DNA of 62,812 bases, counting the filler, from Globobulimina sp. (Eukaryota): assembly GCA_003354225.1 (NCBI GenBank). It is 36 parts of 36 records of this genome, joined end to end, with 100 filler letters (N's around TTAATTAATTAA, not from the genome) between each part and the next. Parts side by side here need not be neighbours in the genome. Positions count along the whole stretch, not along the records: positions 40,202 to 41,848 come from PIVH01013661.1; 35 more parts are not named here. The stretch is one strand, 5' to 3'. Made by a program: the position numbers and the translations under genes. A model generated the notes under the pieces. That model was not told where the DNA came from. It worked only from the letters and a program-made list of their open reading frames with translations, and did not search any database. This document shows, piece after piece, positions 5,148 to 45,143 of this stretch. Position 1 is the stretch's first letter, and each line of letters opens with the position of its first letter.

Positions 5148-5678
5148 NNNNNNNNNNNNNNNNNNNNNNNNNNNNNNNNNNNNNNNNNNNNTTAATTAAT
5201 TAANNNNNNNNNNNNNNNNNNNNNNNNNNNNNNNNNNNNNNNNNNNNTGACGAGAAAAGAAATGAAGCCTTGCATATTTAGGTAATTGCGACCGCATATA
5301 GGCGCCATTATATTTTCATCTGTCCTTTAAATTAAACATACCATTTATAATTAAACAAATGAATGTAAATTGTAAATCTCTTATAACCGCTTGAATCCAA
5401 AAAGAAAAGCGTACTGCAATAATTTGAATAAATTAACGTGTACACAATCAATTATAAAATCGAGCAATAATGCTTCACGTGATACTTTTCCAGGACTCAG
5501 TACTTTTTTTGGTGATAACTGGCATTTGATAAAATAATGTATTTCTATGTCACAAAAAGTATCAAACAGAATTTATGACAGTTTTTTGCTTGTAAATAAT
5601 TGTAATTCAAATACATTTTTTGTAACATCTTTACTTCTCACTAAAGACCATACTCTCGCAATTTTTTTGTGACACAAA

Positions 5679-6896
5679 GTGGCTTTAACGAACTCTTGGT
5701 TCTACACAGAAAGTGAGTACTACGCTTACCAGTATTCGCTCGAAATTTCGATATTAATCGACGTTGGGCATATACCAAAGAGCATAGCAATAACAATTTA
5801 TACGTTATTACCTGAGAATAATTCAGTAGTTTTACAGCATGAAGAAGAAATATATGAATATGCAAATACAACAACAATTGATCGCGAAGGAGGCAGATGG
5901 CATGAACTGTGGACAGATTTTATTAAATACGATGAGCAATTTAGAGCCGAATGGCATGAATATGTCACAAGATGTGAATCCTATGACATTGAAGAGGCAG
6001 AATTTGATTATTTCGAATGAAGATATATTGAGTACGCAAAAAAAAGGCATATCGCCTTCAAAAAAAGAAAAACAAAAACAAAGCAAACGTCCCAGTAAAC
6101 CGCCTATAAAATTAAAGAATTTTGAACGCGACAAAGGCGATACGCCAATCAGTGATTTTTATAAACAAAATTTAAACAAAATAACAGCGGCAACACCAAA
6201 GCTTACATCGCGCCGTGGATTAAAAAGAAAAAGAAACGACGACACTGACAATAATGGTAACGTTACAATTAAAATCAATGGGAAATCAAAGAAAATTAGT
6301 TCCGCGCGAAAGAAAACAAAGGCATTAGATATTTACGAATATAATTCTGATTCAAGTGCGTCGTCGGCTGATATCCCAATCTCTGATTTAATTTGTGAAT
6401 TAAATAAAAAATCACATATTAAAAACAAAACAAACAATATTAATAAATGTATACATAACAAACAATCAAATAAATATAAATGCAATGTTTGTAAACGCAA
6501 ATATTCACTATCTTTCTTAACTAAAAGTAGCGAAATTCCGCACAATGATTCCGATCTAATTTGCGAGATTTGCCGATACAAAATCAACGATAAAAATATT
6601 GCACGTAAATCTGAAGTGACTCACTCTGTAAATAAAAACTTTGAGTCTGAAAATAAAGAGACCGCCAATTTGAAAGTTGCGGTGAAATGTTATAAGATGA
6701 ATTGCACAAATTATATACAAACTGATTATAATATTAAACAAATTGAACACTGCAATGTAACGTGCATTACATGCAACATTGATGCAAATGGAAATACATT
6801 AAACAAAATTAAATATGAATGGAATTGTCCGCGTAAAGATTGTAACGGTGGCCCCTGGCTAACGTTATATGGCTTTATTAAACATTTTAAGCGAAT
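5679..6896 (+). CDS. Hypothetical Lys/Asn-rich protein with CxxC pairs and C-terminal C2H2-like motif; probable frameshift near 6012
   Basis: ORF 5679-6020 and ORF 5839-end are joined by removing one T in gattatttcgaat; NLS-like KRKR; CNVC, CEIC, CITC, CPRKDC...H. Confidence 0.45.
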
Positions 6897-22728: not shown

Positions 22729-22800
22729 AGTTTCGTTTCATTTCATTTCAACGATTGGCTAGGTTTTTGGTTAGCTAGAGTGGTTTTCAACCTAGTATTC
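22729..22800 (+). repeat. Dispersed 72-bp repeat, second copy at ~26020-26091
   Basis: agtttcgtttcatttcatttcaacgattggc(t/a)aggtttttggttagctagagtggttttcaacctagtattc found on two different contigs with one mismatch. Confidence 0.9.
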
Positions 22801-22803
22801 TTA

Positions 22804-24051
22804 ATGTCTTCAAACTGTCGGTACCATGGATCCATGAAAGGTTGTCGTAATGGCACAAATTGTTCGTTCAGTCATCATTATCCAAATTCCATTCAATTGT
22901 GTCGATTTTATAACCGTTGCAAGTATGGCAATGCCTGTAGATTTAGGCATTTTGTGTGGCCGCAAGCCTCTTCCAAATGGACCAAATCCAATTTAATCAC
23001 AAGTACAGAGAAAGAAAATGAACAGCAAACATGGATCACATTGAATACAGAGAAATTTAATGGATTTAATTTCAACCTCGCAAATCCAGTTTATTATCAT
23101 TCAATTGCTACAAAGAAAAAATATATAATATTCTCACCAAATTATTTCGATTATACGGGTTGTATTGAATATGATATTGATACCAATGAATACAATCAAT
23201 ATATAAAAATGCAATATCCATTCAACTGCATACCATTAGAACATGGAATGACTGTTTGTTTCAATAAATTGATGTATATATTTGCTGGATCAAAGAGAAT
23301 ATTTCAATGTTTGAACCTTGATAACGATCAATGGGATCATTATCATATTGTCGAATCTGTCAATGTTCCATCCAATTTTTTATACTCAAACTCTTGTTTT
23401 GTTCAATTTGATTCATTGAATCCATCAATACATGCAATTAATAATCAAAATCATTATCAATTGGATATAGAAAGGAAACTTTTTATAGATTTGACGGAAA
23501 ACTTCGATAAAATACATTTCAAAGGAGAATCATTACTGGTTTGGTCACAAAAAAGACAAATGTTATTTGTGTTGACTAATGGTAAAGAACTTTGGTCAAT
23601 GAATGCCAATAATGAATGGAAATTATGTTTGTTTCAACCACCAAACCATAGCAATAATACATTTTTGAGGTTTATGCTGATTTATGATGCAATATTAGTT
23701 ATATTCAGTGAAAATATAATATTTTGTTTAACATTGGATGAAGATGATAACAATACTAATACTAATTGGATCGAAATAGAATTTGAAATACCTGCTTCAA
23801 ACAACAAAATGTTACAATGTTATCATTTCATTGTGTTTGGAGATGATTATTTTTATTTTATGAACACATTTCCAACAATAAATAAAATGTTTCATTGTAG
23901 AATCTCAATATATAATTTATTAGAATATAATATTTTGCATAAACGACTTGATTTATTCATGCATGGATGGATTGGTAACTATTTATTAAAAACATATGCA
24001 TTGTCAATTCCTGATGCTATCCTCAAAATGATATTTTGCGTATTTTTTTGA
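22804..24051 (+). CDS. Tandem CCCH zinc-finger + Kelch-like beta-propeller protein with C-terminal box motif
   Basis: CRYHG..GCRNGTNCSFSH and CRFYNRCKYGNACRFRH; degenerate Kelch-like blades (YDIDTNEY, HGM..MYIFAG, NLDNDQW); ends LFMHGWIG..IPDAILKMIFCVFF. Confidence 0.75.
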   Translation: MSSNCRYHGSMKGCRNGTNCSFSHHYPNSIQLCRFYNRCKYGNACRFRHFVWPQASSKWTKSNLITSTEKENEQQTWITLNTEKFNGFNFNLANPVYYHSIATKKKYIIFSPNYFDYTGCIEYDIDTNEYNQYIKMQYPFNCIPLEHGMTVCFNKLMYIFAGSKRIFQCLNLDNDQWDHYHIVESVNVPSNFLYSNSCFVQFDSLNPSIHAINNQNHYQLDIERKLFIDLTENFDKIHFKGESLLVWSQKRQMLFVLTNGKELWSMNANNEWKLCLFQPPNHSNNTFLRFMLIYDAILVIFSENIIFCLTLDEDDNNTNTNWIEIEFEIPASNNKMLQCYHFIVFGDDYFYFMNTFPTINKMFHCRISIYNLLEYNILHKRLDLFMHGWIGNYLLKTYALSIPDAILKMIFCVFF

Positions 24052-24376
24052 TATTGAAACTAGATATTATTACATACTGTTTTCATATTAAGATTTTCCA
24101 AAGGGTTTACCTATTTGGATTCTGAATAATTGTAGAAATTGGAATAATTCTGACACTAAAAATACAAATACCACCTTTTTCCACCTTTTTTTCTGGATTT
24201 CGAAAATTATTCGAATTTCTACAATTATTCACAATCCAAATAGGTAAACCCTTTGGAAAATCGTAATATGAAAACAGTACGTAATAATATCTAGTTTCAA
24301 TATCAAAAAAATACGCAAAATATCATTTTGAGGATATCATCAGGAATTGACAATGCATATGTTTTTAATAAATAGT
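23978..24376. repeat. 172-bp inverted duplication (5 mismatches) including the 3' end of the CCCH gene
   Basis: 23978-24149 vs reverse complement of 24205-24376; 55-bp spacer. Confidence 0.95.
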
Positions 24377-25678: not shown

Positions 25679-25969
25679 ATGGCTTCGTTTGAGAAACTAT
25701 TGAAGGAAATCAAACAAAATAGCTCTGCTGAAGATATACTATTTTGCAGTGGATATACAAGAATATATGCTCGGACTGGTAATATTCCTGTGGATAGTGT
25801 GCATTATGTGATTCTATTTTATAAGATATTTGAAGAATGTAACAGTGGCAATTGCAAAGGAGCAGATATGATCATTAAAATAACACAGATATTTATTTTA
25901 GTTGTGGTAAATATGAGTATGTCTGGTATGTGGATAGCAAATACAATGAAAGCAAGATTATGGCGTTAA
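25679..25969 (+). CDS. Short or truncated protein with N-terminal box motif (possible pseudogene)
   Basis: LFCSGYTR..IPVDSVHYVILFY near the N-terminus; ORF ends soon after. Confidence 0.45.
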   Translation: MASFEKLLKEIKQNSSAEDILFCSGYTRIYARTGNIPVDSVHYVILFYKIFEECNSGNCKGADMIIKITQIFILVVVNMSMSGMWIANTMKARLWR

Positions 25970-26224
25970 GCGCTAATAACGATACACTTCAAAACATTCC
26001 GAATTAACTTTTTTGGCTTAGTTTCGTTTCATTTCATTTCAACGATTGGCAAGGTTTTTGGTTAGCTAGAGTGGTTTTCAACCTAGTATTCGAAGTTGAC
26101 CTAGGTCATCCAATACTAGGTCAANNNNNNNNNNNNNNNNNNNNNNNNNNNNNNNNNNNNNNNNNNNNTTAATTAATTAANNNNNNNNNNNNNNNNNNNN
26201 NNNNNNNNNNNNNNNNNNNNNNNN

Positions 26225-27003: not shown

Positions 27004-27122
27004 TATCGACAAATATTATGCCAATAATGAAATGATACTAATATACGTATGTACGTCAATCAATTGTAAGTCCGAGTAACAAAACAGTTTTTAACCACAA
27101 ATATTAGCTTTCAGTTTAAATC

Positions 27123-27725
27123 ATGTTCCATTTGTCTGAAGATTCAAACGCAATTTTAAATGGCAATGACAAAAATGTAATATGTATAGTACGAAAGGAA
27201 AAGAATTCATGCGATGTCATTGTTTATAGAGCCAATACAATCGAAGAAATAGATAATTTTGGCAATATTAAAACCTTCTTACATCCAAAAAATCCTATCG
27301 ATATATTTTGGTTAAAATTATCAGGCCGAGATATAAAAAAACATCGTGAATCTGGCAAGTATAATGATCGTAGCAAACTAAACAAATTTGAAAAAAAACT
27401 TGTTTATGGCGTGAAATGTAAAAAAATCACTAAAAAATCAAAACTCAAAGCTGTTATAAATAGTGACTATAATAGCTCGTATTTAGTGACATTGAATGCG
27501 TTAAAAAGGAAGCAATCCATGAACCTTATCTTACGAATAAATGAAACTGATAATAAACCATATTTGTGTGGCGAAGTGAATGTTTCTGGTGTTTCAGTTG
27601 AATGTGCATTTAAAGAGTTGACAATTTCGATGAAAAAATCCGCAAAAATACCTAAAATTGATTTTGTTACTATAATCGCGACGAAATATAATACTAAAGA
27701 GCAGATTGAAGCGTATATCTGGTGA
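27123..27725 (+). CDS. DUF4833-like protein
   Basis: IVRKEKN..VIVYRAN...PKNPIDIFWL...LNKFEKKLVYGV resembles DUF4833 from memory of the family. Confidence 0.6.
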   Translation: MFHLSEDSNAILNGNDKNVICIVRKEKNSCDVIVYRANTIEEIDNFGNIKTFLHPKNPIDIFWLKLSGRDIKKHRESGKYNDRSKLNKFEKKLVYGVKCKKITKKSKLKAVINSDYNSSYLVTLNALKRKQSMNLILRINETDNKPYLCGEVNVSGVSVECAFKELTISMKKSAKIPKIDFVTIIATKYNTKEQIEAYIW

Positions 27726-32522: not shown

Positions 32523-33213
32523 GGTCTGTTGGTTCAAAAAGGTTTTTAGTTGAGTTGAATAATGCTACGTTTTCCGCATGGCATGTTCAAATTTTCCGCA
32601 GGTTATAGATGGAGATGTTCTGAGTATGAATGGTATGTTGATGTAACCCACGAATTTCATTAATGAATAGCAATTTATATATAAATTAAAAAGCAATGGG
32701 ATTGATTTTGTAGAACCAGTTCCATTCTGGTATGTATGTATTTAATGTGTGTTGCTAAACGTCATTGTATTTCCATATGATTCGTATTTGTAGCTCAATT
32801 TGTATAGCAATGACGCACATCCAATTAATCCATAACATTTGCAATATCGAGGTCAAAATGCGGTACATAGTAAGATTTGTGAAGTTACATAACTTGCATC
32901 TCATATTAATATATTTTAATTGTATACATGATTGCGGCACAAAAATGATTTTACGTGGACCATCCCTTCAATATATGTGGGAACAGGAGGCAGACAGACA
33001 AATTGATATATTTTTGAAAGGAAGTTGTAACTTTCAAATGGATATATTCATCAGATTAAAGATAAAAATTTATATGTTTCTGTTCCTGAAAGTATTATAA
33101 AAGAATGGATTTANNNNNNNNNNNNNNNNNNNNNNNNNNNNNNNNNNNNNNNNNNNNTTAATTAATTAANNNNNNNNNNNNNNNNNNNNNNNNNNNNNNN
33201 NNNNNNNNNNNNN

Positions 33214-34960: not shown

Positions 34961-36607
34961 CTGTGGTTAATAGTATATTTTTCAACCTGTTTTCCTCTGG
35001 AAAAGGTGGAGCTGTTTATTGCATTGGATTGGAAGGTGGATCAAATACAAACATAATGAAATCACCAACATTTGTGAATGTGGCTTTTTTAGGAAATGGA
35101 GCAAGCGCAAGAGGCGGAGCTATATCAGCCGATGCAAATTGTAATTTTAAATGTGATTATTGCATATTTGATAGTAATTATTGTAGTGGTAAAGGTGGTG
35201 CAATATATCTAGGTATGATCCATTCTATGAGCTGCTTATACTGTATAATGTATATATATTTTTAGATTTTAATTCCGATGCAATTATCACAAATACAATA
35301 TTTGCCAATAATTATGCAATGGAAAGCGGTGGTTGTATTGCAGCCGATGGTAAATCACTTGTTATTTTGGAAAATCCTCTATTTGTTGCAAATACGGCAA
35401 AATGGGAAGGCGGATGTTTGTACTCTGGAAGTGGAGTTGGAGAAAATATACATCAAGGATTTGAAATATATTTAGACTCTCTCTCTCTAAATTCAAGCAT
35501 ATTTATTAATAACACAATATTAAACCATAATGCAGGACAAAGCGATGTATATTTATGGCCATACTCAAGTTTTATATTAACAGATCAAACATATTCACCA
35601 ACATCTCAGCCAACATCTGAACCATCATTCGGTCCAACAATACCATCATATTCACCAACTTTAAAACCAACACTACATCCAACCGCACCAACTTTAAGTC
35701 CTACTCCCCAGAGCCCGCCAAATATTTTAATATTTTTAATTGATGACATAGCGTATACACAATCATGGAATCATTCAGCAGCTGCAACAAATTTGAATGG
35801 AGTTAATATTAGTTACTTAAATACCGATACACCAAATATTGATAGAATAATGAATGAAGGACTTGTGTTTCCTCGTTCATACGCATCTGGTCCAAAATGC
35901 GCTCCATCAAGATTTGGAATACTTACAGGTCGCAATGCAATTAGATCACAATATGCCATTAATAAAACATTAAAAACATCCTCGGGATTTGCAGGTACAA
36001 CGGTATCAGTGCCAACACTAAAAATGATTTCAACTGATTTGATTTATAACGTTCCCAATGTCTTAAGAAATAACGATTTTGCAACAGGAATGATTGGCAA
36101 ATGGCATTTGATGACCACAGATGATAATGGGTATAAGTATGGATGTGACTCATTAAATTATTATCCGAATGAAACATTATATGATTTATGCGCAAATATT
36201 GTAAAAGAAGCAGGATTTGATTTTGTGGATGGATTTTATCATTCAAACATTGCAGAAAATGATTATTATTCTCATAATCCCGAATGGATGGTTGAAAGAG
36301 CACAGACGTTTATTGATGGCGCTATTGTTGACAATAAACCTTTTTTCTTATATTTCGCATCGACATTAACACATTCGCCAGATGTAAAAGAGGCGCTGTT
36401 TAATTATTCGCTTAGCGATACGCCCAGAGGGAAATTAACGGCTGATGCAATTCCAAATAATACTGGAATGAGTACAAGAGATTATATTTGGCAGAAAGCA
36501 GCGGAAAAAGGAAAACAAACGAGTAAGATAGCTGGTGTTGTTTGGGTTGATGATGCGTTGGGTGCATTGTTATCATATTTAGAGAATAAATCATTATTAG
36601 ATGATAC
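34961..36607 (+). CDS. Modular protein: GGA(I/V)/FxxN beta-helix repeats + Pro/Thr linker + formylglycine-dependent sulfatase; intron 35213-35265; partial at both ends
   Basis: GGAV/GGAI repeats; PTSQPTSEPS linker; PNILIFLIDD, TPNIDR, CAPSR (CxPxR), LTGR, GKWHL, PFFLYF, DDALG. Confidence 0.9.
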
Positions 36608-36810
36608 NNNNNNNNNNNNNNNNNNNNNNNNNNNNNNNNNNNNNNNNNNNNTTAATTAATTAANNNNNNNNNNNNNNNNNNNNNNNNNNNNNNNNNNNNN
36701 NNNNNNNAATGCTATTGCAGGCATTAAAACATCCAGAGTTTGCTGTGGTTTCCATGCTACACAGATGTTATAAATGATAAATCATGTTCAAAAAAAAAAA
36801 CTTCAAAACA

Positions 36811-40543: not shown

Positions 40544-41848
40544 ATGTCAACATATGTCCTCTTAAATACAAAGAAAGGTCGGTCACAACTATTAGTTAGT
40601 GGATACGTTAGAAAATCTATGTATCAATACATTCATAAAGACATTATCGGTATAATTCATGCATTCCATTATACAACATACACAATATTGGCCTTATATT
40701 CTATTGGTGATAATGAATATGGACAACAGGGCAATGGAGGAAATGATGATATTAAACAAATAACAAAAATAAAAACATTTAAAAAAGAAATAAAAAATAT
40801 TGTTACTTGTGGGAGTTTGGATGGTGTAGCAGCATATATTTTATTTGATGATGAAACATATGAATGCTGTGGTAATAATAAAAAGGGTGTATTAGGTGTT
40901 GGACATTACAATAATATTAATATATGGCATCAAGTAAAAGCTATGAAAATAAAAAATATATTTTCAGCACCAAATAGATCAGAACACTCATTTTGTATTT
41001 CAAATGAGAATAAATTATATGCCGTCGGGAATAATGGTTTTAATCAATTTGGTATAAAAACAATTGAAAATAGTAATAATAAATGGACAGTAATTAATAC
41101 ATCAGTACCAATTCAAAAAGTAGCCACAACGATGAGTTATACAACATTTTTAAGCAGAAATGGTAAAATATACGTTGTTGGCACCGATACTGGTAAAGGT
41201 GGTTTAGGATTAGGTGAAGATATTAAATCATCACAAAATATTCGAGAAATTCAAATTAAAATAAAATTTAAGGATATATATTCTGGACGTTATCATACCT
41301 TAGCAATTGATGATAATTTTGGTGTTTGGTCATGGGGCCGTGCTGTTGGTGGTAGATTAGGCCATGGAGATAATAATAATAGATATCTACCAACAAGAAT
41401 ACAATATTTTGTTCAAAACAATATTCAAATTGGTAAAATATGTTGTGGTTATTCACATAATATATTATTATCATTAAATAACAAAGTTTTGACCTTTTTG
41501 TGTTGTGTTTATTTTTATACAAATATATTTTAATAAATAAGATATATTGTTTTGGAGAGAATAGTGCTTATCAATGTGGAAATGGTGCGAATGAAGATGT
41601 ATATTTACCACAACCAAATGGAACATTAAAAAAGGAAACAATTATTGATATTAAATGTGGAGCACATCATAATGTTATTAAAACATGGGATAATACATAT
41701 TATTTATGGGGATATAATGGCTATAATCAATGTTTACATGTCACTGATGCCAATCCTCCAATATATATTAAGAAACCATTATTATTTAATTCAGATTATT
41801 TTGATAAAGATGAAGAAATAATTGATATTTATGCTGGATATAATGAAA
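40544..41848 (+). CDS. RCC1-repeat protein with N-terminal box motif; intron 41486-41541; 3'-partial
   Basis: GDNEYGQQG, GNNKKGVLG, GRYHTLA..VWSWG..GRLGHG, CGYSH, CGAHH, WGYNGYNQC. Confidence 0.93.
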
Positions 41849-43315: not shown

Positions 43316-43824
43316 TGGGTAAAAACTTATTATTTCTAGTTGAAAACCTACAGTCATTATATATTGTATCAAATTTAGATTCTGGTTTCGCGATTTAGAT
43401 TATGTTACAATAAAACTATTAGAATTAAAATATAACAAGATTTAGATATGGAATACCAGCTAAATTCTTAAACCATGTGAAGACTTGCATTTTAAAACCA
43501 AACCTTACTAGTTTTTTTGAAGTCACTAAGTCCAAAGCATCCTTTCGTCACCTTCCCGCCTTCTGCGTTTGATACAGAGCACATTTTCTGTTCTANNNNN
43601 NNNNNNNNNNNNNNNNNNNNNNNNNNNNNNNNNNNNNNNTTAATTAATTAANNNNNNNNNNNNNNNNNNNNNNNNNNNNNNNNNNNNNNNNNNNNTTCCG
43701 CATCAATATTTCTTCAAATAATCAGCATTTTCTTTTTCTTGATCCACACGAAAAGTTCTCAAAAGTTCTCACTGATGTGGATTGTTAAAAGACTAAAAGT
43801 TTTAGCTACTTCTTAACACATCTT

Positions 43825-45143
43825 ATGAGCTACTTCTTCCGTACTCAAAAGCGTGTTAATTACGCAGACTCCCATTTAACAGATCATTATGGGACATTCG
43901 GCACATTTATTTTAGATGCAAATGAATGTAAAATTAAACATCAATCTATGGATTCCATATTAATTGCAGCAGAAGCAACATATCCATATTTTATACCGCA
44001 GTCAGCTCATTGTTGGGTTAAATTTCACCCACAAAATAATGAACAGTTATATTTTGAGAAACATACAAAAGAATTGAATGGCATTGAAGGTATTGATAAA
44101 TATTATGATTGGGTACGCAGCAAATATAAATTATTAACACCGTTTTATCGATCCAAATTATTGATTTTTATTCCCATAAAATTTAAGTATGCAATTGGAG
44201 ATATTGTAAACATCCCAGATCGACACGAAATAATTGGTTCTACGGTCGCCCAAATACAAACAACTAAATATGATTATGACCATAACAAACGGTGGTACAC
44301 CGTAAGATTTTTAGACCTTAGCAAAAATTCATTATGTACATTAAGTTATTTTTATGATATCTGGCGTAAAGAAGACGATTTTGAATTAATTTTATCAGCA
44401 TTTGAATGTTTTAATAAATATAATAATAATCAGCAAGCAATAATAAGTCAAATACAAAACAAAAAATTGTTAAAAGAAAATGAGTTATTAGCAAATAAAT
44501 GTAATGTTTAGTAGTTTGTAAATAAAATTATATCTTTAGTTGTTATTGTTTTTGTATATATATTTAATAGGTTGCCACACAATTTTTTTATGAAATGTGT
44601 GAAAATATTTTACAATTAATTGATGAAAAATGGATTGTGTGGATGTCGCGGCCATTTGTGAACCAACGCAGAACTGCCTCAGCGCCATTAACATTGAATA
44701 TTTTTAAAGAATATATGATACCATATTTGTGTTCAGAATATAATTTGGATAAATCAATTTGGAAACGAAAGAAAAAGCAAATACAATCCGAAACATTGAC
44801 ATTACAGCAAGTGGCAAATATATTTTCCACTCAAGTTACTGAAGTTTTATTCAATGATTTTTTGGTATTTATAGCGGAACCAATAATTGTATTAAAAGAT
44901 GATAAAATTACACTTATTGCACATATTTGTGACATGAATATTCATACTAAAATTATTAACGGAGACCCTGTAAAAAAACGAGAAAGAATTGACAGGAAAA
45001 AAGCAGCAAAGAAAGAACAGATAAAATTCTATACCAACTTAGTCAGTGCATATATTCGAATCCATACTGAGGGGATCATTTCGATTGAACTATGGCCGTT
45101 GTATATTACTAAAAGAGTTTGTATGTATTATATTAAACGATAA
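43825..45143 (+). CDS. Hypothetical two-exon protein (predicted intron 44506-44570) with SH3/Tudor-like barrel and C-terminal box motif
   Basis: A phase-0 GT-AG intron joins the two ORFs; FKYAIGDIV..WYTVRF..W..E; ends LVSAYIR..WPLYITKRVCMYY. Confidence 0.55.

Follow-up and report, generated by a model that had tools for sequence, protein, structure and literature searches.

A two-block terminal box on unrelated foraminiferal proteins, with a possible docking role

Whole regulatory systems are built around portable docking boxes such as the F-box, the SOCS box and BTB, each of which was first noticed as a recurrent motif on otherwise unrelated proteins. RCC1 and Kelch-type propellers are common receptor domains of cullin-type ligases. 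LisH modules consist of two helices in about 30 residues, stand before WD40, SPRY or Kelch domains and form four-helix bundles by pairing. Here we describe a short two-block box at the ends of unrelated proteins encoded by the foraminifer Globobulimina sp. (GenBank assembly GCA_003354225.1). The window, by which we mean the whole stretch of DNA that was analysed (62,812 nucleotides), is made of 36 unlinked contigs of 1647-1649 bp each with N spacers between them. It is AT-rich (GC 0.26-0.37), and short GT..AG introns are seen in its genes.

A real, portable protein module, the box spans about 30-35 residues and lies at the very start or the very end of its carriers. Block 1 reads LLVxG[YW]IR, block 2 reads [IL]PxDIIxxIxxFY, and the linker between them varies from 4 to 11 residues. 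In a looser form, block 1 is hydrophobic-hydrophobic-[VC]-x-[GA]-[YW]-[IV]-R and block 2 is [IL]-P-x-[DE]-I-I-x-x-[IV]-x-x-[FY]-[YF], with the whole lying near a protein end. As far as seen, the range of the box is foraminifera and foraminifer-like environmental sequences. It is apparently undescribed so far; a full-text search, judged on titles and the openings of abstracts, found no description of such a motif.

Four copies, A to D, had been flagged in an original prediction made from the DNA sequence alone. Translation finds all four peptides exactly where they had been placed, each on a separate contig. What holds of that prediction is a terminal box of about 30 residues, without the identity of any named domain, on unrelated carriers. 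What does not hold is that the four copies are of equal quality: judged by sequence, A is a certain member, B and C are likely members and D is a possible one. Copy A meets all positions of the pattern except the proline, which is histidine, and B meets most of them. In C glycine replaces the arginine, and D has Trp-Pro and lacks the acidic residue.

If this is an independent docking box in foraminifera, it opens a way into the cell biology of these marine protists, a major group in which that subject is almost unknown. Once its partner was identified, all box-carrying proteins would gain a shared function at once.

Carriers of the box and its conservation

Copy A starts 15 residues past the Met of an RCC1 open reading frame (ORF; 40544-41533). 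RCC1 repeats had been proposed as its partner domain, and Pfam bears this out (RCC1-like domain, 1.3e-48). When the full-length RCC1 protein was used as query, 42 of 1421 candidates passed E<=1e-5, and the ten closest were inspected. All seven of these that include an N-terminus (P0004, P0006, P0008, P0009, P0010, P0012 and P0042) carry the box there; the remaining three are N-terminally truncated or start later. The most distant of the inspected relatives is P0042, which like P0006 comes from the foraminifer Bolivina argentea. It has a canonical block 2, and 7 of its 8 block 1 residues are identical to those of A, as against only 76 of 271 residues after the box (about 28%). Between A and P0004 the blocks are identical at 20 of 22 positions, the linker at 2 of 6 and the rest at 205 of 271. 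A homologue search with residues 1-60 of A found no match.

Copy C sits at the opposite end of its protein: its 32 residues close a 440-residue ORF, directly before the stop codon. Of 855 candidates examined for protein C, one proved to be a relative, the Bolivina protein P0046, which is 59% identical. Its alignment to the C gene begins at 22834, and it ends with the same box tail. Identity between the two is 19/22 in the blocks, 0/10 in the linker and 224/373 in the rest, and the linker of P0046 is six residues shorter. The CCCH and Kelch-type domains proposed as the partner of C are borne out by this orthologue (CCCH 1.1e-5; Kelch-type 2.3e-9, under the Pfam cut-off). B. argentea is the source of the closest named relatives for two window genes. 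When an 11-sequence box profile prepared without B, C, D or P0046 was compared by hhalign with the 405-column alignment of C and P0046, it picked out exactly the tail, in register (score 29.4, P 9.9e-5, with 0 of 200 column shuffles as good).

The reach of the box beyond these two families comes from a profile search. Ten box segments (alignment A2) were run with hmmsearch against 1,835,955,588 representative proteins at E<=1e-3, which gave 14 matches. Four are kin of the training rows (P0009, P0010, P0012 and P0046). Five are long proteins with bacterial Ig, CARDB, FKBP or simple repeats and 3-8 weak stretches each (P0047-P0050 and P0052), and these were treated as false positives. The other five (P0051, P0053, P0054, P0055 and P0056) are new, single-stretch matches, all from short metagenome contigs, each with its box beginning 9-25 residues in from the N-terminus. 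In P0056 the box is followed by a TLDc domain (1.9e-24). The other four, P0051, P0053, P0054 and P0055, have no Pfam or Protein Data Bank (PDB) match.

Because of this search and the relatives of A and C, the box can be placed on RCC1, CCCH plus Kelch-type and TLDc proteins and on proteins in which no domain is recognised. Among the 13 database carriers, 12 have the first residue of block 1 at residues 7-25, and in the remaining one it lies 26 residues from the end. The two blocks are more constrained than the carrier, and the linker of 4-11 residues is free; this is as expected of a functional bipartite element.

The TLDc relatives of P0056 also served as a control made of real sequence. It consists of 80 metagenome loci (80 of 110 confirmed, 187 matched) with 222,512 nt and 192,003 ORF residues, mostly from AT-rich eukaryotic contigs. 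No ORF in these loci scored above the best shuffle for the box (best real ORF 9.9 bits, best shuffle 11.1). The TLDc relatives in the loci carry BTB/BACK or BTB_2 (6), fn3 (4), Ras/Roc (4), kinase (2), histidine phosphatase (2) and B-box (1) domains. They come from soil, compost, rumen-like and marine metagenomes and combine with many domains, TLDc being very promiscuous in environmental eukaryotes. Searches of the ESM Atlas returned a best score of 0.78 for the P0042 box, with nothing usable. For the P0056 box, searched against named clusters, the best hit was a TLDc cluster in which the commonest taxon is Foraminifera (0.82), a lead only, and the structure rows were generic helices.

What the window contributes on the box is its C-terminal placement, kept in Bolivina, the linker range of 4-11 residues, the measured contrast in conservation between blocks and linker, and the existence elsewhere of close TLDc relatives that lack it.

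Predicted shape and possible docking role

The box is predicted, with moderate confidence, to be a helix-loop-helix. AlphaFold2, given a 14-sequence box alignment, places a helix at residues 2-14, a loop at 15-19 and a second helix at 20-33 (mean predicted local distance difference test score, pLDDT, 70.9). In a model of the full Bolivina RCC1 protein the propeller has a mean pLDDT of 88, and the first 40 residues form a low-confidence helical appendage (pLDDT 35-66). Column by column, nearly all block 1 positions are conserved, and block 2 presents one broad hydrophobic face, the face of a proline-capped amphipathic helix.

About ten conserved hydrophobic positions are too many for a two-helix hairpin to bury alone, so we infer a partner protein or a second copy of the box. 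The most likely role of the box, to which these positions point at about even odds, is that of a docking handle. Being portable, it would hold the differing domains of its carriers, among them RCC1, Kelch-type and TLDc, against a common partner protein or a second copy of the box. For the explanation as a whole, an apparently new portable module with this putative role, we estimate a probability of roughly 0.5. Several results weigh against it. The box model is of moderate confidence, Foldseek with the 34-residue model gave 0 matches, and VIA gave generic helical hairpins only (best Z 3.9), a model this short being too small to decide on a likeness to solved F-box proteins. To these must be added the scores of the individual window copies, considered in the next section.

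One specific form of docking would make the box the element by which lineage-specific substrate receptors of cullin-RING ligases bind a Skp1/ElonginC-like adaptor, as F-box or SOCS/VHL boxes do. Several features of architecture speak for this. The box is short, terminal and bipartite with a variable linker; its block 2 opens with [IL]P and a hydrophobic helix, like the start of the F-box; its carriers include RCC1 and Kelch-type propellers; and six TLDc ORFs of other environmental eukaryotes have an N-terminal BTB/BACK or BTB_2. The BTB parallel is a weak one, since fn3, kinase, Ras/Roc, B-box and histidine-phosphatase domains are found on TLDc relatives too.

The sequence comparisons do not point the same way. 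A likeness in sequence to the F-box, the SOCS box or LisH, against which the box had been set from the start, did not emerge: none of the ten box segments matched any Pfam family at E<=10, with the F-box, SOCS_box and LisH models included, though the filters of HMMER may lose very weak matches. F-box and F-box-like models found nothing in full-length A, B, C or D at E<=1, or in P0051 and P0053-P0056 at E<=0.1. Searched against PDB sequences, the profiles met no F-box, SOCS or VHL chain at E<=10; profile A2 had 0 matches, and the matches of profile A4 were limited to LSm4 at E 0.5 and an acyl carrier protein at E 1.5. The LSm4 stretch (chain 3jcr_4, residues 60-79) has a Tyr-Ile-Arg and an Ile-Pro-Asp-Glu-Ile-Ile pattern; its E of 0.5 is chance level, and the stretch is part of the Sm fold. 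No F-box protein occurs among the 12 + 94 ORFs scanned in the TLDc control loci, and none of 93 window ORFs of at least 90 residues matched Skp1, Elongin C, cullin, BTB or F-box genes at E<=1e-4.

A canonical F-box was also rejected on its anatomy. In C and P0046 the protein stops right past block 2, 14 residues on from where that block starts, and the propeller of A begins 8 residues past block 2. The box has two predicted helices, the F-box three. The second conserved element lies upstream of the proline-capped helix, not downstream as in the F-box. Taken together, a ubiquitin-ligase role is unlikely. The broader proposal built on it is equally doubtful: that foraminifera evolved a large substrate-receptor system of their own, hundreds of proteins with the box at either end sharing one cullin-type ligase adaptor, as an independent functional analogue of the F-box or SOCS box.

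The box might instead pair with itself, as a dimerisation motif like LisH. The two predicted helices are of a fitting size, a glycine-aromatic pair lies near the end of helix 1, many hydrophobic positions are conserved, and the box stands N-terminal to propellers. Pfam LisH matches none of the ten segments, and the proline-capped block 2 has no counterpart in the LisH pattern. We regard LisH-like self-association as unlikely, and a docking handle as the most likely role of the box.

Statistical support for the window copies

It is conceivable that the family has been over-extended. Only the N-terminal box of the A type would then be a true family, and B, C and D would be chance look-alikes from a proteome rich in Ile, Leu, Phe and Tyr. 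The copies were, after all, originally picked by eye for exactly this pattern. The window by itself does not argue otherwise. Leave-one-out hidden Markov models (HMMs) were scored against 1291 six-frame ORF pieces of at least 25 residues and against 10 shuffled sets, and with the window copies alone similarity was not above chance. B reached 8.7 bits and rank 7, with 6 shuffled ORFs as good in the 10 sets; C gave no match; D reached 3.1 bits and rank 31; and A scored 2.7 bits against the HMM of B, C and D. Since this window-only test stays at background, the case for the copies rests on sequences from outside the window.

An environmental HMM was made from the five new proteins of the profile search. 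With it A scored 28.5 bits (rank 1 of 1348, 0 shuffled ORFs as good in 10 sets), B 11.8 bits (rank 2, 1 shuffled ORF as good), C 7.9 bits (rank 7, 8 as good) and D 3.5 bits (rank 18, 122 as good). Held-out scores were set against the TLDc control loci. Copy A held out scored 21.8 bits, with no control ORF as good (control best 6.7). Control ORFs matched the other three: B at 8.0 bits had 2 as good (range across HMMs 8.0-12.4), D at 8.3 bits had 1 (range 3.1-8.3), and C at 3.5 bits had 50 and is not significant.

Profile-profile comparison is more sensitive than HMM scoring, and two profiles were used in hhalign. Copies B, C and D played no part in the making of the RCC1-family profile. The five proteins of the environmental profile had been retrieved with a profile containing B, C, D and P0046, so its stronger results are partly circular. 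Copy A scored 43.2 (P 1.6e-7). Copy C scored 17.8 (P 0.023) with the RCC1-family profile and 35.1 (P 9.6e-6) with the environmental one. Copy B scored 17.6 (P 0.0044), with both blocks aligned, and 26.1 (P 5.5e-5). Copy D scored 18.3, over block 1 only, and 23.1 (P 7.6e-4, probability 25%). For B, C and D alike, 0 of 60 shuffles were as good with either profile. The scores from the independent profile are modest, at P 0.023 for C, P 0.0044 for B and 7 columns only for D.

Against the 235 window ORFs of at least 60 residues, the environmental profile ranked A, C, B and D first to fourth. The next ORF scored 22.3 over 17 columns, a best background score that the 23.1 of D barely exceeds. The RCC1-family profile ranked A first, D second, B third and C seventh.

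These comparisons speak against chance in three ways. First, B, C and D lie above all 60 shuffles with both profiles, and C lies above all 200 column shuffles as well. Second, the comparison of C with its Bolivina orthologue shows far higher conservation in the two blocks than in the linker or in the remainder of the protein. Third, B, C and D align across both blocks, in register and at a protein terminus, as against background ORFs that align over 5-17 columns. We therefore consider it improbable that B, C and D are all look-alikes, and keep to the ranking given above.

Yet another function could be proposed for the tail of copy C, which ends in Cys-Val-Phe-Phe-stop. A Cys at the fourth position from the end, together with a terminal Phe or Leu, directs geranylgeranylation, and the tail might be kept mainly as such a CaaX-like prenylation signal, a membrane anchor instead of a docking box. 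The FCVFF-stop ending (window 24037-24051) is common to C, P0046 and the partial inverted copy listed in Table 1, but this is very unlikely to be the main reason for its conservation, which reaches 30 residues upstream, to block 1, in a tail that matches, in register, N-terminal boxes for which prenylation is impossible; the two roles could also coexist.

Table 1. Positions of the box copies and of the genes that carry them, counted along the window
Feature	Position	Strand	Description	Standing
Copy A	40589..40672	+	block 1 LLVSGYVR, 6-residue linker, block 2 IHKDIIGIIHAFHY	certain member
RCC1-propeller gene, exon 1	40544..41485	+	314 codons; box and first RCC1 blades in a single exon; Pfam RCC1-like domain 1.3e-48 from residue 51; GT at 41486	
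RCC1 gene, intron	41486..41541	+	56 nt, GT..AG; frame resumes as in paralogue P0007	
RCC1 gene, exon 2	41542..41848	+	RCC1 repeat 6.3e-14; cut by contig end	
Copy B	25739..25822	+	LFCSGYTR, 7-residue linker, IPVDSVHYVILFY	likely member
ORF carrying B	25679..25969	+	96 codons from Met; box near N-terminus	
Copy C	23953..24048	+	LFMHGWIG, 10-residue linker, IPDAILKMIFCVFF, then stop	likely divergent member, extreme C-terminus
Gene carrying C	22780..24051	+	440-aa ORF, two CCCH zinc fingers and Kelch-type propeller; Met at 22780 or 22834	
Partial second copy of C tail	24306..24376	-	block 2 and part of linker; cut by contig end; arm of inverted repeat	
Copy D	45036..45131	+	NLVSAYIR, 11-residue linker, WPLYITKRVCMYY	possible member only
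Gene carrying D	43789..45143	+	exon 1 to 44505; GT..AG intron 44506-44570; exon 2 44571-45143	

Copy B starts 20 residues past the Met at 25679, and its ORF matches no Pfam family at E<=1. Copy D ends 4 residues ahead of the stop of exon 2. The SH3/Tudor-like barrel that had been assigned to the D protein was not recovered, since neither exon has a Pfam or PDB match; for both D exons, and likewise for P0051 and P0053, these searches gave nothing below E 0.06. A half motif that had been proposed in ORF 5673-6017 falls to rank 74 of the 235 window ORFs and was rejected. A candidate for a fifth copy, at 33031-33111, scored 13.9 bits with one HMM and was rejected as well: it scored 5.8 when held out, with 11 control ORFs as good, and it lies at a contig end with a stop codon directly upstream and no AG acceptor.

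Two repeats touch the contigs of B and C. Positions 26020-26091, at the 3' end of the B contig, and 22729-22800, at the 5' end of the C contig, match over 72 nt with 98.6% identity and then diverge. This could be either a dispersed repeat or a sign of neighbouring box genes split by the assembler. An inverted repeat (23978-24149 and 24205-24376) of 172 nt, 97% complementary with 55 nt between its arms, reaches the contig end; through it the final codons of gene C recur on the opposite strand together with the 3' flank. It is either a tail-to-tail pair of paralogues or a fold-back assembly artefact. Elsewhere in the window, ORFs in 34963-36608 (a Chlamydia-PMP repeat and a sulfatase) and in 27120-27722 (DUF4833) look bacterial, not foraminiferal, and associated bacteria may be the source of some contigs in the assembly.

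Comparison with known docking modules

BTB/POZ, as found in BTB-Kelch, RCC1-BTB and BTB-BACK-TLDc proteins, occupies in the TLDc relatives from other environments the same architectural place as the box does in P0056. It is a fold of about 110 residues without sequence relation to the box, and the promiscuity of TLDc makes the parallel prove little.

The SOCS/VHL box of Elongin BC-cullin receptors, with its BC box and Cul2 or Cul5 box, is likewise bipartite, has a variable spacer and can be C-terminal, as C is. Block 2 fits the loose hydrophobic-Pro-x-x-hydrophobic pattern of the Cul box. The BC-box consensus is a Leu, three residues, a small residue or Cys, three more residues and a hydrophobic one. 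By inspection, block 1 does not fit it: anchored on the first Leu, the last position is mostly Gln or Lys, and anchored on the second Leu, the small position is Tyr or Trp. Most copies of our box are N-terminal instead, and Pfam SOCS_box is unmatched.

LisH (PF08513) shares with the box two helices, a length of about 30 residues, a Gly-aromatic pair and a place N-terminal to propeller or SPRY-type domains. Dimerisation of the LisH kind would explain the many conserved hydrophobic positions. Foreign to the LisH pattern are the proline that caps the second helix and the Arg conserved in block 1.

The F-box (PF00646/PF12937), the Skp1-docking box of SCF receptors, is like our box a short helical module at the terminus of proteins with variable domains (RCC1, Kelch and WD40). 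The start of block 2, [IL]P-x-[DE]-[IL]-[IL], resembles its first helix. The F-box has about 45 residues and three helices, whereas the box described here has about 30-35 residues and two predicted helices.

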